A program made the translations under genes and the position numbers. Below, one piece after another: positions 5,031 to 63,777 of a stretch of 64,000 nucleotides of DNA (position 1 is its first letter; each line of letters opens with the position of its first letter). The notes under the pieces were generated by a model. That model was not told where the DNA came from. It was given only the letters and a program-made list of their open reading frames with translations, and did no database searches. This DNA comes from Deltaproteobacteria bacterium (lineage in GTDB: Bacteria > Desulfobacterota > GWC2-55-46): the NCBI GenBank assembly GCA_016177845.1, contig JACOUO010000030.1:37649-101648 (forward strand). The letters are read 5' to 3'.

Positions 5031-5042
5031 GATAACCTCTTT

Positions 5043-7198: not shown

Positions 7199-7223
7199 TT
7201 TTATCTCTTATGCCCTTTTTATT

Positions 7224-7739: not shown

Positions 7740-7792
7740 TTGAAATCAGGCGGGGTTTTATGCCCCCGTACTCCCTTGAGTTTTTGTTGTGC

Positions 7793-8371
7793 TTACCAGG
7801 CCCGCTTCTTTGAGTTCGACAGATCGGGCACAACCTTTATGCCTTCAGGCGTCTTCTCGAATTTCGCCTTTACTATAAATCCGCCTTCTATGCTTTCGGG
7901 CACTGACTGCGGCTTAAGGAGCTCTTCTCTCTCTTTTACAGTGCATTTTGAATCTGTACAGGCAAGCTCATATTCCCTGCCGAGCCTCAAAGCCCTTGTC
8001 GGACATGCATCTTCGCAATAACCGCAGAAAAAACATCTTACAAGGTCAACCTTCCAGACTTTAGCTACCCTGTCCGCTATACCCCTGCCTGTATCGTCTT
8101 CCATCGGAATGACTGTTATACAGCCGGTCGGGCAGGCCTTCGAACAAAGTTCGCAGGCAACGCAAAGCTCTTTGCCGCTTGCATCCCTGTTAAGGGTGTG
8201 CAGGCCTCTCCACCTTCTGTGGGGTATCCATTTCTCCTCGTCCGGGTACTTAAGAGTAATACTCTTGGAGAGATTGTAGCCGAGGGTTATGGTAAGTCCC
8301 TTCATGAAGTCCGTGAAGAGAACCCTTTTTATCATGTCCATCAAATTGAAGCTGTTTTTATTATCGCTCAT
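7793..8371 (-). CDS. nuoI: NADH-quinone oxidoreductase subunit I
   Basis: Two CxxCxxCxxxCP motifs (CVACELCSKACP, CFFCGYCEDACP). Start placed at ATG 8371, which overlaps the nuoH stop (ATGA), rather than at the track's 8431. Confidence 0.93.
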   Translation of the reverse strand: MSDNKNSFNLMDMIKRVLFTDFMKGLTITLGYNLSKSITLKYPDEEKWIPHRRWRGLHTLNRDASGKELCVACELCSKACPTGCITVIPMEDDTGRGIADRVAKVWKVDLVRCFFCGYCEDACPTRALRLGREYELACTDSKCTVKEREELLKPQSVPESIEGGFIVKAKFEKTPEGIKVVPDLSNSKKRAW

Positions 8372-22410: not shown

Positions 22411-22977
22411 ATGTCAAAATGCCACACATGCGGTTGTCTGCCTGGTTTTTTCGGACCATTAGTAGAGTTTCAGGAAAAGAAATATTGTAGCAAGTGTGCC
22501 GAAAAAGCCATGTTACCGAAATGCTACACATGCGGTTCTGTGCCCGGTTTTCTAGGTGGACCATTAGTAGAGTTTCAAAGCAAGGAATATTGCAGAAAAT
22601 GTGCAGAAGGAGCTATTGATGAAGCTTCCTCAGTTGTAATGGTTACTACTACACACAATTTTGATGGGTATAGGGTTCAAAGATATATCGAAATAGAATC
22701 CGTAGAAATCGTAATTGGAACAGGTATTTTTAGCGAAATTACCGGCGAATTTTCAGATTTTTTTGGATCTCGCTCGTCTGCTTTTGAAAAAAAGCTTACA
22801 AGGGCTAAAGAGGTTGCTTTTAAAAAATTGAAATATCAAGCGTTTATGAAAGGTGGTAACGCAGTCATCGGCATAGATATGGACTACACCGAGTTTTCAG
22901 GAAATAGAATAGGCCTGATAGTAAACGGAACGATCGTGGAACTTGAAAAATGCAGCCAAAACACGAGGGGGAAGTGA
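22411..22977 (+). CDS. YbjQ/UPF0145-family protein with two tandem N-terminal CxxC...CxxC repeats
   Basis: C-terminal VTTTHNFDGYRV...GGNAVIGIDMDY...LIVNGTIV typical of YbjQ; duplicated KCxTCG...YCxKCAE unit. Confidence 0.8.
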   Translation: MSKCHTCGCLPGFFGPLVEFQEKKYCSKCAEKAMLPKCYTCGSVPGFLGGPLVEFQSKEYCRKCAEGAIDEASSVVMVTTTHNFDGYRVQRYIEIESVEIVIGTGIFSEITGEFSDFFGSRSSAFEKKLTRAKEVAFKKLKYQAFMKGGNAVIGIDMDYTEFSGNRIGLIVNGTIVELEKCSQNTRGK

Positions 22978-47980: not shown

Positions 47981-48847
47981 TTACAAAATGCAGATTTTCT
48001 TTATCAGGCAACTTTCGCATTTTTCAGGGTCAGGCTCTTTAGGGCATTGGTCCAATATCCCGAGCCTGCAAAGCGAGAAGTCATATTTTACGGGGTCGTT
48101 CGGGTCAAGAGCCTTTAAAGATTCGGTTATCTCCTCAGCCATTTTCCAGTCCGGGTTTGCCCTTGCGGTCAGCCCTATGTTCCTGGAAATCCTTGCTATA
48201 TGGGTATCAAGCGGTATGACGAGCTTTGAGGGGCTGACCTCTTTCCATATGCCGAAATCAAGTTTATCCCCCCTCCGTACCATCCACCTCAGGTAAAGGT
48301 TGAGCCTTTTGCACGGGCTTCCGTCAACAGGAGAAGGGAAGAAGAACCTTACGCCCGCCTTTTCAGGCAGTTTTTCCCTCCCGTAAATCGGGGCAGAATC
48401 AAGAGCCAATACATTCCCGGAAAATTTTGAGAGAGCGTCTTTTATATTCCTGTGGTCTTGCGAATACCCTTTCAGGAAGAATTTGCCGATTGAGCCCTTC
48501 TCTTCTATCATCTGCTTTATGAAATAAATGAGGCAGGCTATGTCAGGGCCCCTGTTGAACCTGTGGACAAATCCGTCAAAAACTCCTTTATCCCTCTCAG
48601 GGGAGAAGTTTACGGCAAATTTATAAGGAGACGCCCCCACTACGGAGAGGACTTTTTCAATGCTCTTCTTAATGGTGTCAACCCGCCCGTAAGCAAGGCT
48701 TGAGGCGATGAGGCCAACTATCTCCCGGTCCTTTGAAGAACTGTACTTATGCACAAATTCCAAAGGGTCGGTAGAGAGGAACTCCAGATCAAAAGTCCTG
48801 TAAAGCCTCTCCAAATACTCTTTCAGCGAATCATTCCTTGACGGCAT
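47981..48847 (-). CDS. TIGR02757-family protein (HhH-GPD related)
   Basis: DPLEFVH, LAYGRV, CKRLNLYLRWMVR, IPLDTH, DPVKYDFSL. Confidence 0.8.
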   Translation of the reverse strand: MPSRNDSLKEYLERLYRTFDLEFLSTDPLEFVHKYSSSKDREIVGLIASSLAYGRVDTIKKSIEKVLSVVGASPYKFAVNFSPERDKGVFDGFVHRFNRGPDIACLIYFIKQMIEEKGSIGKFFLKGYSQDHRNIKDALSKFSGNVLALDSAPIYGREKLPEKAGVRFFFPSPVDGSPCKRLNLYLRWMVRRGDKLDFGIWKEVSPSKLVIPLDTHIARISRNIGLTARANPDWKMAEEITESLKALDPNDPVKYDFSLCRLGILDQCPKEPDPEKCESCLIKKICIL

Positions 48848-49006: not shown

Positions 49007-49037
49007 AAAGGCCTTAGCTCTTTGAGCTAAGGCCTTT
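49007..49037 (-). terminator. Intrinsic terminator of tRNA-Pro
   Basis: Perfect 14-bp stem AAAGGCCTTAGCTC/GAGCTAAGGCCTTT; T-rich tail on the minus strand; 11 nt past CCA. Confidence 0.85.
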
Positions 49038-49048
49038 ACCTGATTTCA

Positions 49049-49125
49049 TGGTCGGGGCGAGAGGATTCGAACCTCCGGCCCCCGCGTCCCGAACGCGGTG
49101 CTCTACCAGACTGAGCCACGCCCCG
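49049..49125 (-). tRNA. tRNA-Pro(CGG), CCA encoded
   Basis: Reverse complement CGGGGCGTGGCTCAGTCTGGTAGAGCACCGCGTTCGGGACGCGGGGGCCGGAGGTTCGAATCCTCTCGCCCCGACCA; anticodon CGG. Confidence 0.96.
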
Positions 49126-49146
49126 ACTGTAAACAATTTCAAATAC

Positions 49147-50238
49147 TTATGGCTTTGAAAAACGCCCCTGAATTATATTTTCATGGGTTTCGCCACAATT
49201 TTGCCACACTTTTGAATAACCCAATCCAAAATCAAGCCTATCAACGGAATCCCGAAGATCTTCCTTGACCAAGTTAACATAAAGCATCGTAGTCTCGATG
49301 TCAAGATGACCAGCGAGAAACATGATCTTCTGGACAGGTACATTTTTCCTGGCAAGCTGGGTACAAAAGGTGTGCCGAAGAGAATGTATATCTGCATCAG
49401 TGATACCGGCTCTCTTATAGCACACCTTAAGGTTCCGAAGCAAATTATTTTTTCTCGGGTTCCCCTTCTCATTCGGGAAAACATACCTGCTCGTGCCTGC
49501 CAGCCTGTCCCTCTGAATAAGCAGGGCATTGTAAGCATCCTCATTCAACGGAACAGTCCGGGGCTGATAGTTCTTGGTGTGATAATTATACTCAGGCTTG
49601 TTCCTGACGTAAACCATCCTGTCCTCAAAGTCTATGTCACACCATTCCAGCATGACCAGCTCCATTTTCCGGAGGCCGATGTTGATCCCTGCCACGATAA
49701 ACGCCCACATGGTATCAGTGGTCAGAGCCAAAAGTGTCTTTATCTCGTGATCACGGAGCCAGCGGGGAAGTTTTTTGGTCTTTACCTTGTAAAACCTGAC
49801 CTCTTTTACAGGGTTCTCGACAAGGTACTTCTTAGTGACCGCATAGTTGAACATGCTCCGTATGTCAGAAAGCTCGCGATTCACCGTATTCTCCGACACC
49901 TTCGCCTTCCTGGCCGGCTTATACGCTTCAATCACCGATGGGGTGACCTTATCCAGGAATTCGATTCCAGATATATGCGCCAGGAAATGATTCATCGAAA
50001 GCTGCATCCTGGAGTATCCGTTGTGTGAAGCGTGGTCTTTGAAATACGGCAGGAACTCGCCCATGAACTCTGAAATGCTTATCCTGCTCGCGAATCCCAG
50101 GCCATGGCGTTCTTTGCGGAGCTTCATATCCGAAATCCAAGCCTCCGCAAAGCGCTTGGTGCTGAACCGCTTGGTTCTGCGAACACCGTTGATCATCACA
50201 TTTGCTTCATATGAGCCATCTTTGAATCTCACGCCCAT
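49147..50238 (-). CDS. Tyrosine recombinase / integrase
   Basis: GLRKMEL (Arg), HSLRHT (HxxR), LAGH, TMLY (Tyr); N-terminal arm and core-binding domains. Confidence 0.95.
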   Translation of the reverse strand: MGVRFKDGSYEANVMINGVRRTKRFSTKRFAEAWISDMKLRKERHGLGFASRISISEFMGEFLPYFKDHASHNGYSRMQLSMNHFLAHISGIEFLDKVTPSVIEAYKPARKAKVSENTVNRELSDIRSMFNYAVTKKYLVENPVKEVRFYKVKTKKLPRWLRDHEIKTLLALTTDTMWAFIVAGINIGLRKMELVMLEWCDIDFEDRMVYVRNKPEYNYHTKNYQPRTVPLNEDAYNALLIQRDRLAGTSRYVFPNEKGNPRKNNLLRNLKVCYKRAGITDADIHSLRHTFCTQLARKNVPVQKIMFLAGHLDIETTMLYVNLVKEDLRDSVDRLDFGLGYSKVWQNCGETHENIIQGRFSKP

Positions 50239-50495
50239 TATAGGTCTGCCTCCTTCCCTGGACGCGGCTCATTGTGCGTATTATCCGTAAATATGATAAC
50301 ACTTTCGACCGGCAAATCAAGCGCCCGAAGAATCCTTACAATAGTTCGGGTCTTGGTCTTCCGACCATTATACTTCATCAATGTCTGCCACGCCTCAAAA
50401 GATACTCCGGCCTTCTTGCAGATATCTTTAATGTCATACATCTTCTTGAGCCTTTGCAGCTCAATCTGTTTTATATCAAACTCGCGAGCTATCAT
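50238..50495 (-). CDS. Small HTH protein, possible excisionase/Cro-like
   Basis: IKDICKKAGVSFEAWQTLM helix-turn-helix; stop overlaps the integrase start (TAATG). Confidence 0.6.
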   Translation of the reverse strand: MIAREFDIKQIELQRLKKMYDIKDICKKAGVSFEAWQTLMKYNGRKTKTRTIVRILRALDLPVESVIIFTDNTHNEPRPGKEADL

Positions 50496-50597: not shown

Positions 50598-51386
50598 TTA
50601 ACCAAGTTTTTTCCATTCCCCCTTTTCGCCATCGAATATCGATTTTTGGAATCTTTGTATAGCTATGACACAGCTCATAAGTCCGTTATTTTTGAAATCC
50701 GCATGTGTGATTATGCAGATACCAAGAAGGGAACCCTCTATATATTTGGCCAGATTTGCGGCACGCTTGGCATCTCTGACAATCAAGATGATATTCATCT
50801 CCCAGCTCCTGAGTTTTGGCTCCCAATAGCTCCGCCCCTTGTTTCCATTTTCATATTCAATATGATAACCGCGCTCGATCACACGATTATCTCTGCCCTT
50901 CAATCTTATAGCTATCATGAGATCGGCTATGTACTTGTTCTTGAGGCTCTCACCCCTGTTCTTATGCCACAGCCTTATCTGCGTGTCATCGGACAAGCTG
51001 ACCAACTCGTATTGCTTCAGTCGGCTCCCTGTTTTTATTACATTTACGATTTCAGTTAGCCTGATCTCGTGGTCTACATTCGCGGGTTTTGGACAGGTCA
51101 TACGAAAGTCAGCAGGATCAAGGTTGGATCCCATGGCACACAGAAAATTCGCCCCTAAAGGGAGCAGGATGGCTGCCCGACGCCCATAGGTCTCACTGGC
51201 ATACTCGCAGGATATTATCTTGATATACTTGTTTTCTGCCAATTTTCTCATGCCGCGAAGGAAAAACTTCCAGCCTACCCGTGTGCCGTCGCGCTTAAGG
51301 AAGCAGTCAAGATTGTAGAGGATTTTAAGGGGTGTCAAGCCCGATGTTAAATGCCAAAAGACGATTATCATTCTATCATTATTCAT
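50598..51386 (-). CDS. Replication-relaxation (Replic_Relax)-like protein
   Basis: N-terminal wHTH-like part, then DHEIRL...IADLMI...HIEYENG...W.PKL pattern; recognised by eye only. Confidence 0.45.
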   Translation of the reverse strand: MNNDRMIIVFWHLTSGLTPLKILYNLDCFLKRDGTRVGWKFFLRGMRKLAENKYIKIISCEYASETYGRRAAILLPLGANFLCAMGSNLDPADFRMTCPKPANVDHEIRLTEIVNVIKTGSRLKQYELVSLSDDTQIRLWHKNRGESLKNKYIADLMIAIRLKGRDNRVIERGYHIEYENGNKGRSYWEPKLRSWEMNIILIVRDAKRAANLAKYIEGSLLGICIITHADFKNNGLMSCVIAIQRFQKSIFDGEKGEWKKLG

Positions 51387-51528
51387 ATAGCCCTCCTTTT
51401 GGATATAAGATTGTAGGGGCGAACTTATCCCTTGATAGTCTTATCGACGAACCCTGAAATAACTTTAATTAAAATGCTTATATCAACTTCTAAGATTTAT
51501 ATTTTAATAGATATTTATTGACAATTGC

Positions 51529-52284
51529 TTGACTTGGCTTATGTTTCCTGTTATGTTCTGGTTCATGGAACTTAATAAACTTTTCAGATTATCGAGAGAA
51601 GTCCAAGGGCTCAAGCAATCCGCTTTGGTAAAAAAGCTTCATATTTCACAGTCTTCGCTCTCTCAGTTCGAAAACGGGCAGTCTACTCTATCTTCGGAGT
51701 GCCTGCTCACCCTCGCCCCCCTGCTCAAAATAAATCCGGGATATCTAATGTGCGAGTCGAAAAACCCCTTCAGTAGCCCGGATCTTATAAAAATGCTTCT
51801 CACGGAAAAAATATTAGTGGGCGTGGACTATACTCCGCTTGAATATGTAGTAATGGTAAACCCCGGCGTGCAGGTCGTCTTTTTGCTCGCCACCTCGATG
51901 TTGGATAAGGCATTGGCAAAGACGGTAGTCGGGCAGTTGACCCTGGCAATCCTCGTCAGGGATCAGGACGGGAATACATTCATTTTCCGCCGAAACAGTC
52001 GGGGCTCCTATATCGTTGGAGAAGGTAATCTGCAGGCCAAGCTACAAGCCATGGAGAAGGAGGACGAAAATAAGGTTGTTACGGTCCGCTTCGAGCATAT
52101 TAGCAAGGCACTTGCCAAGAAGATTAGCGCCTGGGATGTCACTCTTACAGATGTTCAGGGTTTCTTTGAATCGAAGGTGACCAAGACCTTAACGCTGGCT
52201 GAGAACAGGGTCATCGAGCTGATGAGGGCCGAAAAACTTGATCTTGAAGCAGTTGAGCAACTCCTGAGGCATATGAAAGAATAG
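51529..52284 (+). CDS. XRE-family HTH regulator
   Basis: LKQSALVKKLHISQSSLSQFENG; divergent from the relax-xis-int unit; true start may be ATG 51565. Confidence 0.75.
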   Translation: MTWLMFPVMFWFMELNKLFRLSREVQGLKQSALVKKLHISQSSLSQFENGQSTLSSECLLTLAPLLKINPGYLMCESKNPFSSPDLIKMLLTEKILVGVDYTPLEYVVMVNPGVQVVFLLATSMLDKALAKTVVGQLTLAILVRDQDGNTFIFRRNSRGSYIVGEGNLQAKLQAMEKEDENKVVTVRFEHISKALAKKISAWDVTLTDVQGFFESKVTKTLTLAENRVIELMRAEKLDLEAVEQLLRHMKE

Positions 52285-52495
52285 AAAACTATTGAGGAGA
52301 GGCTAATTCTTTGCCGCCCCCCTAAAACATGCCGGCTCCCATGGTGGTTCCCTGTTTCCGGTATTATCAGAATGAAAGTATCATGAATAATCGAGGCTGC
52401 TTTTTCATATAGCCATAATGTGCCTTTTTGCGTTATATTCGATTCGGTCTCAAGTGATGGGGCCTGTATCCTGCGTTGACTCTGGAGGTGGACTG

Positions 52496-52798
52496 ATGGG
52501 AATGGCGAAAATAAATATTCCCTATGATGAGCTGGCGGACTTTTGCCGGAGGAACCATATCATTAAGCTTGCCCTTTTCGGCTCCGTTTTGCGTAACGAC
52601 TTCGGCCCGGAAAGCGATATCGATGTACTGGTGGAATTCGAGAGGGGGCGCGTGCCCGGCCTTATCACCCTCTCGGGAATGGAGCTCGAGTTAAGCCGGA
52701 TGTTCGGACGCAAGGTCGACCTGAGGACGCCCGAAGACCTTAGCAGGTATTTCCGGGATGAAGTTGTGAAGGCCGCAGAGGTCCAATATGCCGCGTAG
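52496..52798 (+). CDS. MNT nucleotidyltransferase antitoxin (MntA-like)
   Basis: [19 protein letters not shown] (GSx10DxD); GGAGG RBS before ATG 52496. Confidence 0.88.
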
Positions 52799-53138
52799 GG
52801 AAGATGTCATACGCCTGCACCATATGCTGGAGGCCTCAAGGGACGCACTGTCATTTATCAGCGGCAAGGCGAGACGCGACCTCGATGATAACAAGATGCT
52901 GCGCCTCTCACTTGTCAGATGCATAGAGATTATAGGTGAAGCGGCCTCAAGGCTCTCCCCTGATTGCCAGTCGGAATTCCCCGCTATTCCTTGGAAAAAT
53001 ATTATTAATATGAGGAACAGGCTCATACACGCCTATTACGATATAAATATCGATACCGTCTGGGGCACAGTCACTGAAGACCTTCCGCCTCTTATAACTG
53101 AGCTCGAAAAGATAGTCACATTAGCCGAGAAGCCTTGA
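52788..53138 (+). CDS. HEPN/DUF86 RNase toxin (HepT-like)
   Basis: IEIIGEA, IPW...MRNRLIHAY (Rx4H); overlaps the MNT gene. Confidence 0.88.
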
Positions 53139-53184
53139 GCCCTCTCGGCTTCCATTAATTGTCAAATACGCCTGAAGGAAAGAA

Positions 53185-54876
53185 GTGAAGAAGACAAAAC
53201 TTGAGCTGACCTGGATAGGCAAAGAGAACCGGCCGAGGCTTGAGCCGCGTATCCTCATCGAGGACCCGTCAAAGTCGTACCACGCGCCCTTCCGTACCGG
53301 CGGGAATGATATATTCGACAACCGCATCATTTTCGGGGACAACCTGCTGGCCCTCAAGGCCCTGGAGCAGGAGTTTGCCGGGAAGGTGAAGTGCATATAT
53401 ATAGACCCGCCGTATAATACCGGGAGCGCCTTTACGCATTACGATGATGGCGTCGAGCATTCAATATGGCTGTCTCTGATGCGCGAAAGACTTAGCATTC
53501 TCTGGCGCCTTTTAGATCGCACGAGCGGGTCTTTGTGGGTCTCTATAGATGACCGCGAAATGGCATACCTCAAAGTATTATTAGATGAGATTTGTGGTAG
53601 GCTGAATTTTATAGCTGCGAATGTCTGGCAAAAACGCTATTCACGAGAGAATCGAGAAGCCATTGGCGATGCACATGAATACCTACTCGTTTATGCTACC
53701 GACCCAGTAGCCTTTAAGGAAGGGCGGAATTTAATTCCTCTTCAAGAGAAACAGAAAAAGCAATACTCAAACCCTGATAATGACCCACGCGGGCCATGGC
53801 AGTCGGTTTCGTTACTGGCGCAAGGCTATAGGCCGAATCAGATGTATGAGATAATCGCTCCAAATGGTCGTCGCCATACACCGCCGCCTGGAAACTGCTG
53901 GAAAATCATTAATTCAGAGTACGAAAAGCTTGTAGCAGAAAACCGCGTGTATTTTGGTCGAGATGGCAATGGGGTGCCGAGGCGCAAGGAGTTTCTTAGT
54001 AAATCAAAAGGCTTAGTGCCATGGACATGGTGGCCCCACGAAGATGTTGGGCATACAGGTGAATCCAAGATAGAAGCAAATACTCTTTTCGGTGCTGATA
54101 TCAGTTTCGGGACACCAAAACCTGAGCGTCTTATGAAAAGAGTTATTGAGATTGCCACCAATCCCGGCGACCGCGTCCTCGACTCTTTCGCCGGTTCCGG
54201 CACAACCGGCGCCGTGGCGCACAAGATGGGCCGCCGCTGGATAATGGTCGAGCTGGGCGAGCACTGCCACACCCACATCATTCCCCGAATCAAGAAGGTG
54301 ATAAATGGGGAAGACAAGGGCGGTATCAGCGAGCCTGTCAATTGGAAGGGCGGCGGGGGCTTCAGGTATTACCGCATCGCGCCCTCTTTACTTGAAAAAG
54401 ACCAGTTCGGCAACTGGGTCATAAGCAAGGAATATAATCCGGCCATGCTTGCCGAGGCAATCTGCAAGCTCGAGGGCTTCACCTACGCCCCGAGCGATAC
54501 GGTCTATTGGCAGCACGGCCACTCCACTGAGAGCGACTTCATTTATGTCACGACCCAGACGCTCACCCGTGAGCAGCTCCAGAAACTCTCGGATGAGGTC
54601 GGCCCGAAAAGGAGCCTCCTTATAATGTGCGGGGCCTTCCGGGCAAAGAGCCTTGACGAGTTCCAGAACCTGACCGTAAAGAAAATACCCAAGGCCGTGC
54701 TCAATAGCTGCGAATGGGGCAAGGACGACTACAGCCTTGAAGTAGACAACCTTCCGATTAAAACCCCTAATGAAGAGACGGCCCCGGATGACCGGAAGCC
54801 GCACTCCATGAAAGAGAAGCGGACAGGAGCGCAAACCCTTTTATTTAATATGGCAGGTGAGAAAGAGGACGCGTAA
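53185..54876 (+). CDS. mod: Type III R-M methyltransferase (Mod)
   Basis: GDNL, IYIDPPYNTG, TPKPE, DSFAGSGTTG. Confidence 0.9.
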   Translation: MKKTKLELTWIGKENRPRLEPRILIEDPSKSYHAPFRTGGNDIFDNRIIFGDNLLALKALEQEFAGKVKCIYIDPPYNTGSAFTHYDDGVEHSIWLSLMRERLSILWRLLDRTSGSLWVSIDDREMAYLKVLLDEICGRLNFIAANVWQKRYSRENREAIGDAHEYLLVYATDPVAFKEGRNLIPLQEKQKKQYSNPDNDPRGPWQSVSLLAQGYRPNQMYEIIAPNGRRHTPPPGNCWKIINSEYEKLVAENRVYFGRDGNGVPRRKEFLSKSKGLVPWTWWPHEDVGHTGESKIEANTLFGADISFGTPKPERLMKRVIEIATNPGDRVLDSFAGSGTTGAVAHKMGRRWIMVELGEHCHTHIIPRIKKVINGEDKGGISEPVNWKGGGGFRYYRIAPSLLEKDQFGNWVISKEYNPAMLAEAICKLEGFTYAPSDTVYWQHGHSTESDFIYVTTQTLTREQLQKLSDEVGPKRSLLIMCGAFRAKSLDEFQNLTVKKIPKAVLNSCEWGKDDYSLEVDNLPIKTPNEETAPDDRKPHSMKEKRTGAQTLLFNMAGEKEDA

Positions 54877-57563
54877 TGAATCCCATCGTAAATGCCATTG
54901 CCAACCGCCTTAGCCTGAGGCAGCCACAGCGGAACTCTCTCGATATACTGGCCCAACTCTGCGATATGCTGCCCTTTGAGAAGAATACGGATACCATCGA
55001 AGCGCTCAAGGCGGTGCAGGCCGGATATGCCTCTGTCACTGATTTTGAACGCGACTTTCCCTCTCTATGCTTCGCCCTCGCTACCGGAGTTGGGAAGACG
55101 AGGCTCATGGGCGCGTTCATTGCCTATCTTTATAAGGCAGAAGGCCTCAGGCATTTCTTCGTCCTCGCCCCGAACCTTACCATCTACAACAAGCTCATAG
55201 CCGATTTTACTCCCAACACTCCGAAGTATGTTTTGCAGGGGATATCCGAGTTTGCGATGGAACCGCCGGAGCTAATAACGGGAGACAACTACGAGAGCGG
55301 ACGGGGAGTGCGCAAGGAAGGCAATCTGCCTGGAGTAGACTGGGAAAGGAATGTACATATAAACATTTTCAACATTTCGAAGATAAACAGCGAAGTGCGC
55401 GGCGGCAACGCGCCCCGTATAAAGCGGCTGGCAGAATACATCGGGCAGAGCTATTTTGAATACCTCGCTGGACTCAATGACCTGGTTCTCCTTATGGATG
55501 AATCTCACCGTTACCGGGCTACTGCCGGTGTTCGCGCCATTAACGAGCTGAAGCCCGTACTGGGGCTTGAGCTTACAGCCACGCCGCAGGTTGAGACTGG
55601 CGGCAAGACTACCTCATTCAAGAATGTCATTTACAGCTACCCGCTTTCAAGCGCAATGGCCGACGGCTTCGTAAAAGAACCGGCTGTGGCCACCCGCGAG
55701 AACTTCGACGCGAAGAACTATGACGCTGACGGGCTGGAGCGCCTTAAGCTCGAGGACGGCGTCCGCATCCATGAGAACACCAAGGTTGAGCTTGAGGTAT
55801 ATGCCCGTGAAAACAGCAAGCCCATCGTAAAGCCTTTCATGCTGGTCATAGCGCGAGATACAGTACACGCCAATGAGCTTGTAAAGGCGATAGAGGATGA
55901 GTCCTTCTTCGAGGGGCGGTACAAGGGCAAGGTCATCCAGGTCCATTCAAAGCAGAGCGGTCAGGAAAAAGACGAGACCGTCCAACAGCTCATTAATGTG
56001 GAGAAGCCGGAAAACCCGACCGAGATAGTCATTCATGTCAATATGCTCAAAGAAGGCTGGGATGTCACCAACCTTTATACGATTGTCCCATTGAGGGCCG
56101 CGAACTCGCAGACGCTTGTGGAACAGTCCATTGGGCGCGGCCTTCGTCTGCCATACGGCAAGCGCACCGGCGTTGGGGCGGTAGACCGGCTGACCATAGT
56201 CTCTCATGACAAGTTCCAGGAGATAGTTGATTATGCCAATAGCCCGAATTCTGTAATAAGGGGCGGGCTGAAGGTCGTCTATGTTAATGACGAGCGTTCA
56301 AAAGTATATGTGGCGGAGCCGGAGATAATCTTTCGCGTAAATCCCCCGGCTGAGGGTGGCCAGCTTCCTGCGGGCGCACCATCAAAACAGAAGGTCTTAT
56401 TTGAATCGCCCAAAGAGCAGGAGGCCGCGAAAGCAACCCTTGAGGTAATCCGAGAATACGAGAACCTGCCGCGCTCCGTTGACCTTGCCAGGCCGGAGAT
56501 ACAGAAGGAGATAATAGAGAAGGTCAGGGAGATAATCACCCCAGCTCAGAAGGAACTGGAAGGCGTAACGGAGAAGATAGAACTGGCCAAGATAGTGGCC
56601 GAGACAGTTGCCAAACATAACGAGCTTTTAATAGATATCCCCAGGATTACGCTCCAGCCCATTGGCGATGTCACGCGAGGGTACAAAGAGTTCAAGCTCG
56701 ACCTGTCGGGCGTGCGCCTCCATCCGGTGGAGAACGAGATCCTCATCGAGGAACTGCACCGGAGGGAACAGGTTCTCCTGATGAGTGGCACCGGGATTAT
56801 GCCCGAGGACAAGCCGGAAGATTACATAGTACGCGGCCTCATGGAATTTGATGATATTTGCTATGACGAGCACGCCGGGCTTCTTTACAACTTGGCAGGG
56901 CAGGTTGTCGCGCACCTCAGGACATACCTCAAGAATGAAGATGAGGTCTTAAATGTCCTTCAAAATCACAATCCGGCCCTCGTAAACCTGATACATGCCC
57001 AGATGCAGGCCCATTACGAAGATAAAGCCGAGGGCTATGAAGTACATGTAAGCAGGGGCTTCACGACCCTGAGGGCGAATAATTATTCAGCCCCGGCTGG
57101 CGAGTCAGAGCGTGACTTCCGTGTGCCTGTCGCTGATAAACAGGATATCCGCAGGATGCTCTTTGCCGGGTTCGAGAGATGCCTCTACAGGGTTCAGAAG
57201 TTCGACTCCGACTCCGAAAGGCGGTTCGCCGTCGTACTGGAAAAAGACAAGGATGTCCTAAAGTGGTTCAAGCCCGTCAAGGGAGATTTCAGGATACACT
57301 ACACGAGTGACGCAAGCTATGTGCCGGACTTTATCGTAGAGACCAGGGACAAGAAGTTTATCTGCGAGCCAAAGGCCGCTGGGGAGATGACCGACAAGGA
57401 TGTGCAGTCAAAGGCAAGGGCGGCCGTTGAATGGTGTGCCCATGCGACGGCCCACGAGCTTAAGCACGGCGGCAAGCCCTGGGCGTATCTCCTTATACCC
57501 CATGATGCTATCGCGAATAACAAAAGCCTCAAGGGACTGGCTACCTCTTTTACAGTGACGTGA
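54876..57563 (+). CDS. res: Type III R-M endonuclease/helicase (Res)
   Basis: ATGVGKT, DESH, TATP, MLKEGWDV, QSIGRGLRL, C-terminal PDF...EPK nuclease; start overlaps the mod stop. Confidence 0.9.
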   Translation: MNPIVNAIANRLSLRQPQRNSLDILAQLCDMLPFEKNTDTIEALKAVQAGYASVTDFERDFPSLCFALATGVGKTRLMGAFIAYLYKAEGLRHFFVLAPNLTIYNKLIADFTPNTPKYVLQGISEFAMEPPELITGDNYESGRGVRKEGNLPGVDWERNVHINIFNISKINSEVRGGNAPRIKRLAEYIGQSYFEYLAGLNDLVLLMDESHRYRATAGVRAINELKPVLGLELTATPQVETGGKTTSFKNVIYSYPLSSAMADGFVKEPAVATRENFDAKNYDADGLERLKLEDGVRIHENTKVELEVYARENSKPIVKPFMLVIARDTVHANELVKAIEDESFFEGRYKGKVIQVHSKQSGQEKDETVQQLINVEKPENPTEIVIHVNMLKEGWDVTNLYTIVPLRAANSQTLVEQSIGRGLRLPYGKRTGVGAVDRLTIVSHDKFQEIVDYANSPNSVIRGGLKVVYVNDERSKVYVAEPEIIFRVNPPAEGGQLPAGAPSKQKVLFESPKEQEAAKATLEVIREYENLPRSVDLARPEIQKEIIEKVREIITPAQKELEGVTEKIELAKIVAETVAKHNELLIDIPRITLQPIGDVTRGYKEFKLDLSGVRLHPVENEILIEELHRREQVLLMSGTGIMPEDKPEDYIVRGLMEFDDICYDEHAGLLYNLAGQVVAHLRTYLKNEDEVLNVLQNHNPALVNLIHAQMQAHYEDKAEGYEVHVSRGFTTLRANNYSAPAGESERDFRVPVADKQDIRRMLFAGFERCLYRVQKFDSDSERRFAVVLEKDKDVLKWFKPVKGDFRIHYTSDASYVPDFIVETRDKKFICEPKAAGEMTDKDVQSKARAAVEWCAHATAHELKHGGKPWAYLLIPHDAIANNKSLKGLATSFTVT

Positions 57564-57857
57564 AGCTGCAGCCCTTTCTATGAGTCTCAAAAGGCGGTTC
57601 CGGATGGGGTTCCAGGGGTGATGTCGTGGGAAATACTGTAATTTTTCTAAGCTCCCATTCTGCTTATGTTTTTTCATGCCTTAATTCCCAGCCATAACAT
57701 ACCTTTTTATGCTGTAAAATAAAAAACACACTTGGCTGGCTATCGCCCGCTACATCTTCAGAATAAAAGAATGACCCAGGATTTATCACAAATATCCGGG
57801 CGGCTGCTACCTATTCTCCTTTGGCAACTGCCTCAAAAAATCTGCCCCTAACGCCAA

Positions 57858-57866
57858 TGCTATAAT
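57858..57866 (+). promoter_or_regulatory. Extended -10 promoter
   Basis: TGcTATAAT, 49 nt upstream of the 27-aa ORF. Confidence 0.55.
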
Positions 57867-57915
57867 AATCCTGAGTTGAAGAGGTTTAAAAATATCTCAA
57901 TACAAGGAGGGTTTT

Positions 57916-57999
57916 ATGCAAAAGGTACTCGGGGTTATTGCGGATGTCATTACGGTATCAGTATTTATAAAAGTACTCGTGACAGCCGCAGGAATCTAA
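57916..57999 (+). CDS. 27-aa hydrophobic peptide (not in ORF track)
   Basis: MQKVLGVIADVITVSVFIKVLVTAAGI; AAGGAGG RBS. Confidence 0.6.
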   Translation: MQKVLGVIADVITVSVFIKVLVTAAGI

Positions 58000-58114
58000 A
58001 CAGTCAAAAATAGGTCAATACAACTTAATACTTATTCCCCATATCTCAGGGCTCTTTTTTAGGAAGAGATTGGTTTACCATTGAACTTATACAGGATGGA
58101 AAGGAGGGCAGCGT

Positions 58115-58249
58115 ATGAATACAGTTGCAATCTTTTTTGCGCTTATGACGGCAGTCGGGTTTATAGGTGCTTATCTTGTCCGAAGGCATGAACGCAAGGT
58201 CCGAGTTGAAAGGGCGGCACAGGCCGAAAGGCACAGCCGTCATCTCTAA
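58115..58249 (+). CDS. 44-aa single-TM peptide with charged tail (not in ORF track)
   Basis: MNTVAIFFALMTAVGFIGAYLVRRHERKVRVERAAQAERHSRHL; AAGGAGG RBS. Confidence 0.65.
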   Translation: MNTVAIFFALMTAVGFIGAYLVRRHERKVRVERAAQAERHSRHL

Positions 58250-58482
58250 ACCTTCACATGTTTACTCCTCTTTAAAACATAAGGGCCTTCGGGTGCCATT
58301 AAAGCACCTGAAGGCCTCCTCGTTTTTTTGGCAGGCTTCAAAGCTACATTCAAACAACATGGCCTTATCGCCCAACATTCTCCTAAAACAAACGCCTTTG
58401 ATGTCCTTTTCTCCAGAAACCTCTTAACAGCGGATTCCGGGATAAGGACCGGTTTTCCCCTTATAGTCGTAATAAGCCTCAT
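58246..58482 (-). CDS. Hypothetical protein
   Basis: 78-aa ORF with an ATGA overlap to the upstream ORF; no family recognised. Confidence 0.35.
   Translation of the reverse strand: MRLITTIRGKPVLIPESAVKRFLEKRTSKAFVLGECWAIRPCCLNVALKPAKKTRRPSGALMAPEGPYVLKRSKHVKV
58284..58329 (+). terminator. Intrinsic terminator after the 44-aa ORF
   Basis: 13-bp stem GGCCTTCGGGTGC/GCACCTGAAGGCC (one G-U pair) followed by T7. Confidence 0.6.
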
Positions 58483-58667
58483 ACTGACCTAATGGCGGGA
58501 CAAAGTACGGGGTCAGAGCCTTTACGCAGGCGCTCGCGCTTGAGCACCATGGACACAGAATATGCAACGTATGTCAATGGGCAATGAATTTTTACCCCTT
58601 TGGGGCTTTGAAAATTTACCCCCTGTGCCGGTTTAGTTTTCTTCCTCTTGGTTTCTGATGAGCCCAA
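58479..58667 (-). CDS. Hypothetical protein
   Basis: 62-aa basic ORF, TTG start, AAGGT upstream; no family recognised. Confidence 0.3.
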   Translation of the reverse strand: MGSSETKRKKTKPAQGVNFQSPKGVKIHCPLTYVAYSVSMVLKRERLRKGSDPVLCPAIRSV

Positions 58668-58766
58668 CTTTTACCTTTTCCTTGAGCCCAATTTAAAACG
58701 GAATATCTTCTATATTATTATTGTGTATCCGTCAATCAGGTTTGTATCAAGGTCTGCGGCGGCCTT

Positions 58767-59015
58767 TTGAAGTATTGCGTCTTTAATATTCAGGTTCCGA
58801 CCATCTTGATGGTGAATAAGGAAAATGGCAGTTACTTTCCAGTATCCACGGGTGTAGTGGCGTTAGATGATTTAGAACTCAGAATCTATAGGAGCGTGCG
58901 TCTACTTAAAGGGGAGATTCAACCTAAGGACTGGTCTGATTACGAGTTCCAAAATGGCGGAATCTTCGATACCCAGACTAGACCAAATATGCCTCAAATA
59001 GAAAGCTACCAGTAA
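58767..59015 (+). CDS. Hypothetical protein
   Basis: Open frame directly upstream of traH; start uncertain. Confidence 0.35.
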   Translation: MKYCVFNIQVPTILMVNKENGSYFPVSTGVVALDDLELRIYRSVRLLKGEIQPKDWSDYEFQNGGIFDTQTRPNMPQIESYQ

Positions 59016-59056: not shown

Positions 59057-60421
59057 ATGAACCGTAAAATCATTCTTTTATTTATTACCCTTCTGTTCTG
59101 CGTAAATACAGCTCATGCCGGCTGGGTTGACGACTGGTTCAACCAAAAAACAGAGACGGCACCAGGGTATCTTGAGGGCCAGAAAAGAGGGTATGTGACT
59201 GGAGGCTCTTTTTCCGCCAGAGTACAGAGCCACAATGACTACCTTGCAACCTTTCAGGCCCCTTCATTTAAAGGGGGGTGCGGCGGTATAGACGCATTCA
59301 TGGGAGGTTTTTCATTTTTAAATACGGACAGACTTGTCAATAAGGCCGAGGCCATGATAGCAAGCGCCCCTGCTATCGCATTCGACTTAGCCTTAAACTC
59401 ATTATCCCAGACACTGTCAATAAGCTCTAAAGATTTTAATACTATATCGGACACCTTAAATAAGCTTCAGCTGGATGACTGCAAGATGTCAAAGGCCGTT
59501 ATTACAAGAACTCTGGATTATACTGCTGGCACTCATGTAGCTCAGCAGAATGATGAAATAGATAAATTTGTCGGCATGTGGAGAGGGACAACAGACTTGG
59601 CGCAAAACATCACGGATAATCACAAAAACAACACAGCTTCTTCCAATTGGTCCGAAGCCCATTCTGCCTGTCCTGCGGAGCTTCAAAATATAGTAGGCTA
59701 TAATTCAGTACTAGAATATGTGGTAGCGCTTAACGGGATTGGAGGGTCAGATACCACTCAGCTACTACGCGGCTATATCGGAGATATTAGATTGAACTTT
59801 AGCGGGACTACCTTAAAGGCCGCTTATGAGTCTTCTTGTGCTGAAAATCTTGATTATAAGGCTATCTTAGAGGGGACTGCTTACGGTAAAGTCATGGGTG
59901 GGGGATGCGCTCAATTAGGCCCAAATACCATCAAGACTACAGTTTACAATAATATAACAGATGCCATGAACTCCATGAAAACCGGTACTCCTTCTAATCC
60001 GGCCACTACCGCTTTTTTAAATTCTATGTCAACCATCCCTTTGTATCACTATCTTCAATATATGATAGTGACAAACCAGTTTGATGCCGGTAGAAATGTG
60101 GCAACAGATTTTGTGTCCGAGGCATATGTATACAATGTATTCCAAGCCTTGATGGATACATCCTTGAGCCTGCAGAAAAATTTAAAGAAGCTTGTTAGCA
60201 GCGCTGATTCCCAAGCGCAATGCCAATTACAGGAGTTCGACGGGCTTATTGAATCACTTAATGTTTTAAATCAATTCGCACGGATTTACAAGGAAGATGC
60301 TGACAAGCAGTATAGCAGGGCAACCAGTGCGTTTATGCAGACTTTTGAGATGTCGGATAAGGTGTTGACCTTCAAAAAAATGGCCACAGACAACTTAAAG
60401 AAACTAACTTACAGTAAATAG
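59057..60421 (+). CDS. traH: F-type conjugative pilus assembly protein TraH
   Basis: Signal peptide; AGWVDDWF...GGSFSAR...PSFKGGCGGIDAFMGGFSF.N; followed by traG. Confidence 0.85.
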   Translation: MNRKIILLFITLLFCVNTAHAGWVDDWFNQKTETAPGYLEGQKRGYVTGGSFSARVQSHNDYLATFQAPSFKGGCGGIDAFMGGFSFLNTDRLVNKAEAMIASAPAIAFDLALNSLSQTLSISSKDFNTISDTLNKLQLDDCKMSKAVITRTLDYTAGTHVAQQNDEIDKFVGMWRGTTDLAQNITDNHKNNTASSNWSEAHSACPAELQNIVGYNSVLEYVVALNGIGGSDTTQLLRGYIGDIRLNFSGTTLKAAYESSCAENLDYKAILEGTAYGKVMGGGCAQLGPNTIKTTVYNNITDAMNSMKTGTPSNPATTAFLNSMSTIPLYHYLQYMIVTNQFDAGRNVATDFVSEAYVYNVFQALMDTSLSLQKNLKKLVSSADSQAQCQLQEFDGLIESLNVLNQFARIYKEDADKQYSRATSAFMQTFEMSDKVLTFKKMATDNLKKLTYSK

Positions 60422-60426: not shown

Positions 60427-63400
60427 ATGTATACTACTGAATATATAACGCATTCCGGCTTCGATATACTGAAAAACTCTCTCCAGGGGACAGCCCTTCT
60501 TTTCGGGGATAGTTCCCTGGATACGCTCTATACGGCTATCCTTATGTTGGGGGTTGTGCTGGTAGCTGTGGCGATTTCAATCAAAGTAGTATTCGACAGC
60601 AAGACCCATCCCTTGGAATGGGTTAAGCCTGCTGGTCTGGCGGTGATGCTCTATCTTTTACTGGTAGTGCCAAAAGGAACCATCAATCTCTATGACGATG
60701 TAGAAAATAAATCCATATCGATAGGCGGCCTTCCAGTGGGCCTTGTACTGATGGCAGGGCTGACAAACAACATAGAGACCGAAATCAATGACAGGATAAC
60801 CCTTGCCATGTCCCCCATTATTTCTATATCTGACATAGGGTACGGTAGGACTTTTGACCTCTATAAAAATTTGTTTAATTCGGTAGACAAGACCGACTCT
60901 ATAAGCCCTTACCATCGGATGACTGTAAAAAACTACATGAACGACTGCGTCCTGTGGGGAGTCTCATTGGGGGATATCTCGGTGGAGGATGTACAAGGCA
61001 ACGATAACTGGACCGCAATTATGAATGCGGCCTCAACTTACAGTTCGACATATACTACCTATCATGACGCAACTTCGGCTGCTAATATGGCGGGTGTAAC
61101 CAAAACCTGTACGGAGGCATGGGCTTCTATACAGGCGCAGCTATGGCCGGATGCAGCAGCCCATTGGGAGAGGGCTCTCAAAGACTATTGCTCCTCGACT
61201 GGCTTTAACTCTGCCGACCCAGCTTCATATCTTGAATGCAAGAACAAGATGGAGTCTTTTACCAAGTACATAACAAAGACCGCCGTTGATATTCCGGCTA
61301 CAGCCCTTTTAAAGCAGGCCTGGGTTTCCAATGTGATAGCCCATACTCTAAGCGAAGGGCAGTCCGTGGACGCAGCCCAGATGCAGGGGCTTCTCCAGAC
61401 CAATACCACCTTAGTCTCAAGCGGGCTGATGGCCACTGAATATATCTATATAATCAAGGCCGTCACTACAGGTATTGTATTCGGCTCTACAATAATTATG
61501 GCGCTTCTCATCTGCACCCCTTTTGCCAAGACAGCCGCGCAGTACTGGTTGGGCATGTATCTGTGGCTTCTGATGTGGGGAGTCATGGATGCGCTATTGC
61601 AGACCACCGCGATAAATTACGCCTACCAGTTTATGCAATCCAACAGGGAGTCCCTTGGCTTGGGTCTGGCGGGCATGAGCGTCTTAGGAGATAATGCCAC
61701 CAAAGCCATTGCCCTGATGGGGCATATGCGTTGGATGGGTATGATGCTTAGCGCCTCTCTTACATTCGGCGTGTTTAAGTTCGGAGGGGACGCATTCACC
61801 TCGTTTGCCGGAAGTCTTGGAAGCGTTCCCCAGGGGGCAGGTGGAGGCGCCGGCAAGGTAATGACCCCTGAAGGGGCGACATCTGCCATAAACGAACACG
61901 CCAAGAGTGTAGCCCCTACGATGGCCGTTACTAGCCGTTATGGAGTAGAAGGCATGTCCAGCGCTAATACATACGAAGCAATGAGACAGCATTCGGCAAA
62001 TAGCGCATTAGGGAGCAGTGACACAGCCAGTGAAGCTGGCCGTATACAAGGCCTCAATACTGTGGGGAACACAGTCGGTGCTGCCGGCTATTCGACACAT
62101 CAAGAAGGTAATAAGCAAATATATGGCAAGGTCAATGCTGATGGTTCAACAACCACGGGTGAAATAGACCGGTTAACAGGCGCTGGTACGGAAACAACAA
62201 CCGGCATGAAAGATGGATTGTCCTTTACCAAAACAGAAGCTGTGCAGTCTTCTAAATTTGGGGCGAATGCAAGCGCAGAAGACATACTTGACAGTAAGCA
62301 GAGTAAAGGTGGCACCTATCATGCTACAGGTACACAGAGTATGGATCTGGACGGCAAAGGGAGTAAGCCTTATCAGGTGTCGCAGGACGGCATGGTCGGG
62401 GCTGACGGCTCAACAACACCGACTACTACAAATGTCGCATCTACAGACGGGTCTAATTTCAGGGCCTCTTTAGACAGTAAGGGCAATATAGTATCTTCCA
62501 GTGACGATCAGAGGAACACTATCAGCGTCGCAGGCGGAAGCATTGTTATGGATAAAGACGGCCATGTAAGGGACGCTAACTTAAAGGGTATAAGCACCCA
62601 GTTCTCAAACAAGATAGGGACAGCCTTTACTAAGTCTGACGCCAATTCAATAGCCAAGTCAGTAGGTTGGCAGCAAATCCTGAGTAACGATACCAACGCC
62701 AGCTGGAATAAAGGGGTTGATAAAAGACATACGGATTCATTGTCTTCTACTACAAGACAGATGATGTCGGAAGGCATAACCACTAACAACTCTCTTAGCA
62801 ACGCAAGATCGAAAGAGACGGGGCAGACCCTTGCTGGGGCTATCAGTGCAGGTGTTGGCACTCCCAGTATCAGTCCTATAAAAGTAAACGGAGAGACGCG
62901 GTATCAGGTAGAAACAAAAACTAAAGACGGAACAACGCAGACATTTGAGCTCAGCGCACAGCAGAAGGAGGCCTATGACAAGATTACTGAATCTGCAGTG
63001 ACCAATGCAATAACAAAGTCTGCCTCAACCTCCGAAGGCAGGGCCAATACCTTAAGGATCGCGGAGAATGTGAATGCCACTCAAGCCAGTCAATCCCTCT
63101 CTCAGATAAGAAGGGAAGAGGCTGCTGCGGCCCAGATAACCAACAATATGGATGCAGCCGCGTTTACCGCCTATGCCGATAGCAACTTCGGAGAGATTAA
63201 AAACGATAGGGAGCGGTATACGGCAGCACTTAATCATATTGCTGAGACTTATAGCTCAGGAGATATCGATAAAGTGAGTGAGCTGAATAAACAGTTGAGC
63301 GGGCCTGTCCATTCCATGAATGACGCAGCCACTCAAGGATTAGAGGAAAAAGCTGTAAATGCGGGCGTACAGCCAAGCGAAGTTACAGCAACAGAAGTAG

Positions 63401-63777
63401 AACAGCATGCGCAGGAGGTTCATAATAAGGCAAATGAAGGAGCTGAGAAGCTGGATAAAGTCCCGGACAAGCCAGGGGACCCGCGCCAACTACCAAATAC
63501 GCCTCGCCCCGATGAAGGAAAATTTGAGGAAAAAGAAAAGGAGCAGAAGAATAAAATCAATGGCACAGATATGCCTACTACACCGTTTCATACTGTTGTG
63601 GATGCCGTAAAAAATGCAGCAATTGCCGGCGGGACGCCCGATGACCCCGCTGCGGCTCTAAAGAAACAGGCTGGGGAACTCTTTAAATTTGGAGGAATAT
63701 CAAATCCCTCTCCGGATATATCTTTAGGCGAAAACCTAAAGAAAGAATTGCAGGAAAAATCAGGGGACAAGAGGTAG
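60427..63777 (+). CDS. traG: F-type mating-pair stabilisation protein TraG
   Basis: 1116 aa; TraG_N-like multi-TM N-terminal half (GLPVGLV, NYMNDCV, YLWLLMWG) and a long Ser/Thr/Gly-rich C-terminal region. Confidence 0.8.
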   Translation: MYTTEYITHSGFDILKNSLQGTALLFGDSSLDTLYTAILMLGVVLVAVAISIKVVFDSKTHPLEWVKPAGLAVMLYLLLVVPKGTINLYDDVENKSISIGGLPVGLVLMAGLTNNIETEINDRITLAMSPIISISDIGYGRTFDLYKNLFNSVDKTDSISPYHRMTVKNYMNDCVLWGVSLGDISVEDVQGNDNWTAIMNAASTYSSTYTTYHDATSAANMAGVTKTCTEAWASIQAQLWPDAAAHWERALKDYCSSTGFNSADPASYLECKNKMESFTKYITKTAVDIPATALLKQAWVSNVIAHTLSEGQSVDAAQMQGLLQTNTTLVSSGLMATEYIYIIKAVTTGIVFGSTIIMALLICTPFAKTAAQYWLGMYLWLLMWGVMDALLQTTAINYAYQFMQSNRESLGLGLAGMSVLGDNATKAIALMGHMRWMGMMLSASLTFGVFKFGGDAFTSFAGSLGSVPQGAGGGAGKVMTPEGATSAINEHAKSVAPTMAVTSRYGVEGMSSANTYEAMRQHSANSALGSSDTASEAGRIQGLNTVGNTVGAAGYSTHQEGNKQIYGKVNADGSTTTGEIDRLTGAGTETTTGMKDGLSFTKTEAVQSSKFGANASAEDILDSKQSKGGTYHATGTQSMDLDGKGSKPYQVSQDGMVGADGSTTPTTTNVASTDGSNFRASLDSKGNIVSSSDDQRNTISVAGGSIVMDKDGHVRDANLKGISTQFSNKIGTAFTKSDANSIAKSVGWQQILSNDTNASWNKGVDKRHTDSLSSTTRQMMSEGITTNNSLSNARSKETGQTLAGAISAGVGTPSISPIKVNGETRYQVETKTKDGTTQTFELSAQQKEAYDKITESAVTNAITKSASTSEGRANTLRIAENVNATQASQSLSQIRREEAAAAQITNNMDAAAFTAYADSNFGEIKNDRERYTAALNHIAETYSSGDIDKVSELNKQLSGPVHSMNDAATQGLEEKAVNAGVQPSEVTATEVEQHAQEVHNKANEGAEKLDKVPDKPGDPRQLPNTPRPDEGKFEEKEKEQKNKINGTDMPTTPFHTVVDAVKNAAIAGGTPDDPAAALKKQAGELFKFGGISNPSPDISLGENLKKELQEKSGDKR

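Follow-up and report, generated by a model that had tools for sequence, protein, structure and literature searches.

The 64,000-nt window, meaning the whole stretch of DNA analyzed here, appears to hold one end of a decayed conjugative or defense island inserted in reversed orientation into a chromosomal tRNA-Pro(CGG) gene. The element's attP would have carried the 5' half of the tRNA, with strand exchange at the anticodon stem-loop. We give this reading a probability of roughly 0.65. Under the proposed mechanism, attP would lie just downstream of the integrase gene and would hold a promoter-leader segment followed by tRNA positions 1 to about 41. Recombination would take place at the anticodon stem-loop, a natural inverted repeat with a 7-nt spacer. 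The tRNA gene beside the integrase would as a result be a hybrid: promoter, leader, and 5' half would stem from the element, and the 3' half with the terminator from the host. The promoter and 5' half that the host gene originally had would have been displaced to the island's opposite end, as a fragment forming a direct repeat there.

The tRNA-Pro(CGG) gene occupies positions 49049-49125 on the minus strand. It is intact, 77 nt long, and encodes its CCA end, as determined with ARAGORN and Rfam (RF00005, 65.8 bits over the full model). The island thus has at one end an intact tRNA gene, the insertion target, which was restored at the junction next to the integrase. It differs by one nucleotide from the tRNA of a related locus that lacks an upstream integrase gene (L031). 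Direct reading of the sequence places a 21-nt leader (49126-49146, minus strand) after the integrase stop codon and directly ahead of tRNA position 1, with ...TTGAAATTGTTTACAGT on the leader side of the boundary and CGGGGCG on the tRNA side. The 3' part of this leader, TTGAAATTGTT(T/G)ACAGT, is also present in the closest relative (L112) and is unrelated to the leaders at the empty sites L029 and L033. By these comparisons, the leader is element DNA. On the host side, the tRNA is followed by a 14-bp hairpin and T-run resembling an intrinsic terminator (49007-49037, minus strand) and by a DUF2400/TIGR02757 gene (47981-48847, minus strand; Pfam 3e-77), beyond which lie a 338-aa ORF and a 216-aa ORF. 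In relatives, the gene order is DUF2400, polyprenyl synthase, HhH-GPD, and their DNA aligns with the 3' flank of the tRNA in the window. tRNA-Pro(CGG) is found upstream of DUF2400 at five other loci (L011, L029, L031, L033, L039).

The integrase gene lies upstream of the tRNA on the same strand (49147-50238, minus strand). It encodes an intact tyrosine integrase of 363 aa, with Pfam matches to Phage_integrase (E=2.5e-26) and to SAM-like N-terminal domains; NCBIfam returned Xer-like matches below threshold only. Residues R190, H285, R288, H311, and Y320 fall in columns conserved across relatives (alignments A1 and A6). As in the Islander definition, a tyrosine integrase gene, recognized by Pfam and by these catalytic residues, is therefore located within the island and adjoins the tRNA. 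Two claims of the initial annotation hold on this evidence. ARAGORN, Pfam, and sequence reading agree that the integrase, encoded on the strand of the tRNA, ends 21 nt short of tRNA position 1, and the hairpin with its T-run and the DUF2400 synteny with relatives bear out that the tRNA 3' end is followed by its own terminator and chromosomal genes.

Further features surround the integrase gene. The integrases of the clade described below end in a C-terminal tail of about 25 aa that is poorly conserved as protein and is absent from more distant integrases with the usual geometry. Within the region encoding this tail is a tandem direct repeat with 11-bp phasing, GTGTGGCAAAA/TTGTGGCGAAA (49188-49209, minus strand). 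Its consensus, TGYGGC-N5-TRYGGC, stands at the same place in all eight live or remnant loci of the clade, with the two copies in different frames, and is decayed in a fossil locus (L039). These repeats may serve as arm-type binding sites for the recombinase. An 85-aa ORF (50238-50495, minus strand) immediately precedes the integrase, and its stop codon overlaps the integrase start codon. A counterpart with 57-58% identity occupies the same place next to the integrase in L004, L005, and L010. Its helix-turn-helix signal is weak (HTH_3 in Pfam, sub-threshold only), and it is a candidate excisionase or regulator. Plasmid and viral collections contained no close relative of the integrase, the best identities being 27% in PLSDB and 26% in IMG/VR.

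Comparison with empty sites indicates on which side of the tRNA the element was inserted. We scanned JGI metagenomes for DUF2400 relatives and retained the best 80 loci (L029-L108). In four of these best 80 (L029, L031, L033, L039), a tRNA-Pro(CGG) gene is located upstream of DUF2400 on the same strand, and at none of the four is the tRNA preceded by an integrase gene. The genes located there instead encode a 2-thiouracil desulfurase, a shikimate kinase, an HI0933-like oxidoreductase, and a ferredoxin-type protein; at one of the four loci, the HI0933-like oxidoreductase gene adjoins a 320-aa ORF without a Pfam match. L029 and L033 combine housekeeping genes upstream of tRNA-Pro(CGG) with the DUF2400 linkage. 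When the window was compared with the empty-site loci by BLAST, the downstream genes and the tRNA aligned and homology ended 1-3 nt before tRNA position 1. This indicates that the tRNA is chromosomal and that the inserted DNA lies on its 5' side. The island is thus 5' of an intact tRNA and chromosomal DNA is 3' of it, as evidenced both by the 3' synteny and by the loss of homology to L029 and L033 at about -1 to -3. Neither the window nor L002, a Logan contig that extends it, contains homologues of the genes that precede the tRNA at the empty sites, and these genes therefore give no guide to the far flank.

The same layout recurs among close relatives of the integrase. Sequence and profile searches recovered a small clade only: besides the window, seven loci, each assembled independently, whose integrases share 65-81% identity with that of the window, as well as the fossil L039. 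These loci come from several samples and four pipelines (Logan, SPAdes/ENA, NCBI MAG, JGI). At all eight loci including the window, and at the fossil, the integrase 3' end is followed by 5-25 nt and then by position 1 of tRNA-Pro(CGG). Three loci with 65% identical integrases have full-length genes: in L004, the tRNA begins after 5 nt and the contig stops at +27; in L005, 20 nt precede tRNA positions 1-41 and unrelated DNA follows; and in L010, 20 nt precede an intact tRNA. Among those with 69% identity, L006 has a split integrase ORF followed after 21 nt by an intact tRNA, L011 has an integrase cut by the contig start followed after 5 nt by an intact tRNA and DUF2400 as in the window, and L113 retains the last 184 codons followed after 20 nt by an intact tRNA. 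The 81% identical L112 retains only the last ~139 codons, with an intact tRNA after 13 nt. Across the clade, DNA on the 5' side of the tRNA is homologous and DNA on the 3' side is completely different. More distant integrases behave otherwise: P0007 (29% identity; locus L007) is encoded downstream of the 3' end of a tRNA-Leu gene and P0006 (31% identity; locus L027) downstream of the 3' end of a tRNA, both in the usual layout, while P0008 (locus L028) has no tRNA nearby. With two distant integrases in the usual layout and a third without a tRNA, the reversed layout is a trait of this integrase clade.

On the basis of these comparisons, several proposals of the initial annotation stand. The empty-site comparison that it called for, together with the 3' synteny, confirms that the tRNA-Pro is chromosomal and intact and that the element lies 5' of it, since homology to L029 and L033 starts at about -1 to -3. 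Its suggestion that close homologues of the integrase might share this geometry is supported at eight of eight independent loci including the window, plus one fossil. Its prediction that the element must supply both leader and promoter agrees with the observation that, from about -1 to -3 outward, none of the upstream DNA matches L029 and L033.

The DNA to the right of the integrase shows what the island carries. A 262-aa ORF of unassigned function (50598-51386, minus strand) and a divergent gene for an XRE-type helix-turn-helix protein (51529-52284, plus strand; Pfam HTH_19/HTH_3) are probably a regulatory module (50598-52284), and both also lie beside the integrase in L001. From 52418 to the right end of the window, the genes named here are all on the plus strand. 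An MntA/HepT toxin-antitoxin pair (52418-53138) is carried as cargo, followed by a type III-like restriction-modification pair consisting of an N6_N4 methylase (53185-54876) and a ResIII helicase-endonuclease (54876-57563), all assigned by Pfam and NCBIfam. After about 1.1 kb of ORF-poor DNA comes a C-terminal fragment of TraF (58767-59015), which matches only profile positions 192-224 of 224 (33 residues), then TraH (59057-60421; Pfam 1.8e-60) and TraG_N (60427-63777; Pfam 1.4e-62). L002 reaches 4.7 kb beyond the window, to about 68.5 kb, and encodes small ORFs followed by cas2, a cas4-cas1 fusion, and a Cas12b/C2c1 gene. From 49.1 to 68.5 kb, the F-type transfer set consists of TraH, TraG_N, and the TraF tail only; no relaxase, coupling protein, or TraC/VirB4 was detected in the 19 kb from the integrase to ~68.5 kb. 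The island is a mosaic with a truncated F-type transfer module rather than a complete conjugative element. With its transfer genes cut short in this way, the element may have lost its mobility.

A related interpretation is that the junction is the fixed relic of an old, now immobile element, onto which the restriction-modification genes, conjugation fragment, and CRISPR-Cas genes later accreted and from which the far-end repeat was deleted. The reduction of the conjugation module to a TraF fragment, TraH, and TraG is in line with this, as is the frequency of remnants in the family (L112, L113, L039, and the split integrase of L006). So too is the search for tRNA fragments: a mismatch search and short-word BLAST for copies of the tRNA 5' or 3' half across the window and L002 returned only tRNA-Pro itself and the T-arm of a tRNA-Gln, with no tRNA 5' fragment within 19 kb. 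However, the integrase ORF is full length and retains its catalytic residues, and the overlapping 85-aa ORF is intact. We consider the relic interpretation unlikely. It bears solely on whether the element is active today; as to how the junction arose, it does not depart from the reversed-insertion reading. Since there is no tRNA-Pro fragment in the 19 kb to the right of the tRNA, the far boundary of the island lies further on, beyond ~68.5 kb.

The position of the crossover is best indicated by comparing two clade members. L005 and L010 align without gaps over 1430 nt at 94% identity, and the alignment stops at tRNA position 41. Beyond this position, L010 continues with the rest of an intact tRNA, a terminator, and host genes. 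L005 continues instead with unrelated sequence: it reads ...CCGCG TTCGGGA CG and then switches to GTCTCGTTTTACCC..., 2 nt past the anticodon loop. L005 is one contig of 1.6 kb, to which the assembler gave a coverage tag of 1.69; its distal 110 nt have no match among the sequences compared. It may be a true attP, in circle or plasmid form, or else an assembler path through the 41-nt repeat. Either origin requires a junction between the tRNA 5' half and non-tRNA DNA, which is the signature of reversed integration at the anticodon stem-loop.

In the window, tRNA positions 1-41 correspond to 49085-49125 on the minus strand and encompass the 5' strand of the acceptor stem, the D arm, the 5' strand of the anticodon stem, the loop, and 2 nt more; the reverse complement of this segment, as read on the plus strand, is CGTCCCGAACGCGGTGCTCTACCAGACTGAGCCACGCCCCG. 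We infer that it is an element-borne, attP-derived identity block, an assignment made because the homologous L005 carries integrase, positions 1-41, and foreign DNA. The anticodon stem-loop itself, CCGCG-TTCGGGA-CGCGG (49082-49098, minus strand; loop at 49087-49093), is a perfect 5-bp inverted repeat around a 7-nt spacer. Inverted repeats around a spacer of this length are the ordinary core architecture for tyrosine recombinases. This stem-loop is thus a candidate for the core site and for the overlap region of strand exchange, and the crossover is likely to be located here rather than at the acceptor stem. Scans for a tRNA-Pro 5' half running into non-tRNA sequence were also performed on larger collections. 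They gave no matches in the JGI metagenomes and ten in IMG/VR, which were rejected as chance matches inside GC-rich coding sequence.

The initial annotation had instead put the exchange at the tRNA 5' end or close to it. In this model, strands would be exchanged at or just upstream of position 1, the 5' strand of the acceptor stem would be recognized as a mimic of the reverse complement of the usual 3'-end target, and the element would carry only the leader and the promoter, plus at most a few tRNA bases. The boundary of empty-site homology at -1 to -3 fits this model as well as it fits exchange at the anticodon loop, and a T at -1 is invariant at all clade loci. In L005, however, positions 1-41 are kept, so that 41 nt of tRNA travel with the integrase and the break falls 2 nt past the anticodon loop. 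The proposed mimicry does not stand either. The 7-nt match, CGGGGCG, follows automatically from stem complementarity, and of the additional GT only the T at -1 is conserved: leaders in the clade end in GAT, AAT, ATT, or CAT, with AGT found only in the window and its closest relative. Exchange at position 1 is accordingly an improbable account of this junction, with odds well short of one in five.

Two other explanations fare worse. The complete tRNA-Pro gene might be cargo of an element whose integration site is elsewhere, so that the tRNA was never the target. Adjacency alone is compatible with this, and there are DUF2400 relatives without an upstream tRNA (L025 and most of L029-L108). Yet the DNA directly 3' of the CCA end differs at every clade locus, genomes without the integrase keep the same tRNA-DUF2400 linkage, and L005 has only half of the tRNA, all of which make the cargo model very hard to sustain. 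An assembly artefact or inversion at the integrase-tRNA junction, a concern raised by the initial annotation and by two Logan contigs that end inside the tRNA (L001, L004), can be set aside almost entirely, given that the same junction is present in seven other independently assembled loci and in L001, an independent Logan reassembly in which the integrase, leader, and tRNA positions 1-17 are 100% identical to the window, and that contig ends are expected at repeats, with L003 ending exactly at the end of a 33-nt repeat.

If the element supplies the 5' half of the tRNA gene, as proposed in the reversed-insertion reading, it must also supply a promoter. A consensus scan detected a promoter-like TTGACA-17-TATGTT (10/12 matches) inside the integrase 3' end (49276-49304, minus strand), which is a candidate for the element-supplied tRNA promoter. 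Located 150-180 nt upstream of the tRNA, this motif is shared by the window and L112 and is absent from other clade members. A lone TATAAT also occurs in the window, at 49172-49177. In most of the clade, and in the fossil as well, a hexamer of the TATAAT type (TATAAT, TATAAA, or TATGAT) lies some 75-85 nt before the tRNA. No convincing sigma-70 promoter common to all clade members was found, and candidate sites differ by subclade.

The fossil locus provides a view of what remains when an element decays. The 150 nt that precede the tRNA in L039 align with the integrase 3' end and leader of L011, L004, and L010 (global z=6-7, with 0 of 500 shuffles reaching the score), including a local block with 27 of 36 positions identical (z=9.4). 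The alignment is in frame (KLDFSLRTLYN versus KLDFGLGSQYN) with stop codons just upstream, and the downstream genes have about 81% DNA identity to those of the occupied locus L011. We considered whether the elements had captured a host promoter, given that a AAAAGCTGGATTTC...TATAAT block is present in both L039 and L031. This possibility was rejected; the block encodes ...SVEKLDF, an ending that is native to integrases and also occurs in distant integrases with the usual geometry, which terminate just after it. For this reason, the L039 block is a fossil integrase end rather than a captured host promoter. The upstream similarity of L031 to the integrase end is weak (z up to 4.4). L113 (184 codons), L112 (~139 codons), and L039 form a graded deletion series in which the integrase 3' end, leader, and tRNA are always kept. 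Such a pattern would be expected if the tRNA depends on an element-supplied promoter.

A broader scenario can be offered tentatively, as one that is possible but has the odds against it. The integrase ORF may have grown its C-terminal tail over its own attP arm, and the tRNA promoter may lie within the integrase 3' end. Integration would in that case place expression of tRNA-Pro(CGG) under lasting new control, and the integrase 3' end would be kept as a promoter when the element decays, a course that the graded remnants L113, L112, and L039 fit. If so, mobile elements would be the source of some tRNA-Pro promoters that look native in these bacteria, left behind as fossils, and repeated reversed integrations could stack such fossils upstream of tRNA-Pro.

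Island-finding tools and annotators generally expect an island to lie downstream of its tRNA. Among mapped tRNA-gene islands only about 4% are reversed, and few of these have been studied. The clade described here offers occupied, empty, partly deleted, and fossil states that can be compared, and its probable attP suggests that the anticodon loop could be a pivot permitting either polarity. If confirmed, it would be a tractable system for understanding how a tyrosine integrase family switches target polarity, as well as whether mobile elements can take over a host tRNA promoter and leave one behind.

Reversed targeting of tRNA genes is uncommon and already documented, and the window does not contain a new kind of system. 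Zhao and Williams (2002) reportedly described one such case, and a classification by Williams (2002) is said to include integrases of the anticodon loop, or "A" site. Among the 3919 islands of the Islander database, 3760 have a 3' tRNA-gene fragment and 159 a 5' fragment, contrary to the unprecedented orientation implied by the initial annotation; anticodon-centered attP sites are the commonest class (2083 of 3919) (PMC4383910). In their passage on reversed targeting, Krupovic et al. (2019) cite Zhao and Williams (2002) and archaeal cases, and elements listed there as recombining with the 5'-distal part of a tRNA are those of Krupovic and Bamford (2008), Gaudin (2014), and Cossu (2017), and CalSub-E1 (PMC6563490).

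The island resembles known reversed-orientation islands in that a tyrosine-integrase island is located 5' of a regenerated tRNA and the element must supply the 5' part and promoter. It differs from them in host, which here comprises uncultured Deltaproteobacteria/Thermodesulfobacteriota MAGs; in integrase clade, with identity of 27% or less in PLSDB; and in that the integrase ORF reaches within 5-25 nt of tRNA position 1. The displaced 5' fragment that defines such islands is absent from the window and the 4.7 kb beyond. The proposed crossover at the anticodon stem-loop, with an identity block that would end at the loop, would be shared with "A"-site integrases. In contrast to their usual arrangement, the block here would be a mirror image that extends from the loop to the 5' end rather than the 3' end, and the integrase is upstream of attP and reads towards it. 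The archaeal 5'-distal elements have the same reversed target polarity, although they are archaeal viruses and plasmids and the likeness is one of analogy only. Likewise, TraH, TraG_N, and the TraF fragment near the integrase module recall F-type (MPF-F) integrative conjugative elements, of which the 19 kb read contains only the tail of the transfer operon. What is particular to this clade is an integrase gene that abuts the tRNA 5' end, a probable pivot at the anticodon loop, and a visible series of decay.

Defence-type cargo adjoins the integrase module of the island (window 52418-57563): the toxin-antitoxin genes MntA/HepT, and a methylase and a ResIII helicase-endonuclease that form a type III-like pair. 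The latter pair includes an RE_endonuc C-terminal domain and weakly matches the BPTD_3080 family. Between the restriction gene on one side and the TraF fragment on the other lies a stretch of about 1.1 kb (window 57600-58700) in which no ORF exceeds about 90 aa. It probably consists of remnants left when the upstream transfer genes were deleted.

The truncated conjugation module that follows is enclosed by an exact direct repeat of 33 nt. One copy is located at window 58728-58760 and the other at 4449-4481 of L002, the Logan contig that reaches past the window, equivalent to about window positions 64753-64785; when extended to 41 nt, the two copies are 95% identical. Between them lie the TraF fragment, TraH, TraG, and a small-ORF segment, and each copy makes up the 3' end of a small ORF (...PSIRFVSRSAAA). 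The same 33-nt repeats form both ends of another Logan contig, L003. The pair may be a sign of a rearrangement or of a nested insertion. Elsewhere in the window, two neighbouring repeat families (22417-22616; period about 102-105 nt, 80-84% identity) apparently lie within coding sequence in which a Cys-containing motif is repeated.

Just past the right end of the window, approximately 1.3 kb downstream of TraG, L002 carries adaptation and effector genes of type V-B CRISPR-Cas (4806-8193). These are cas2, a cas4-cas1 fusion, and a Cas12b/C2c1 gene with RuvC-like and Nuc-II domains; the available sequence shows no CRISPR array.

Two Logan contigs end within the 5' half of the tRNA: L001, which independently covers the junction of integrase, leader, and tRNA in the window, at +17 (window 49109), and L004, from a relative with the same integrase clade, at +27. 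As L003 illustrates, Logan contigs end where repeats of at least 31 nt end. By this reasoning, the stop of L001 may reflect a second sequence in sample SRR12113422, one that shares 14 nt of the element leader and tRNA positions 1-17. It is equally possible that low coverage caused the stop.

Related loci show further features of interest. In L006, the integrase (233-1329) is broken into ORFs of 129 aa and 233 aa and is probably a pseudogene, while the tRNA-Pro next to it is still intact. In L031, a site without an integrase gene, the integrase-end block recurs in weaker form (AAAGACTGGATTTCGCTCCGCGAAAGTGTTAT) at about 5644-5676, some 190 nt upstream of tRNA-Pro (z up to 4.4); this copy may be an older fossil. 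The closest relative, L112, carries a similar CTGGATTTCG block about 1 kb upstream of its tRNA, as well as a 3' fragment of a different tRNA on the opposite strand (about 1192-1232), just upstream of the truncated integrase. The 3' end of its tRNA-Pro (ATCCTCTCGCCCCGACCA) recurs as an 18-nt direct repeat at 2117-2134, 141 nt downstream of the tRNA, with a TTTTA flank common to both. This repeat is the scar expected of an element inserted in the usual orientation at the same tRNA-Pro.
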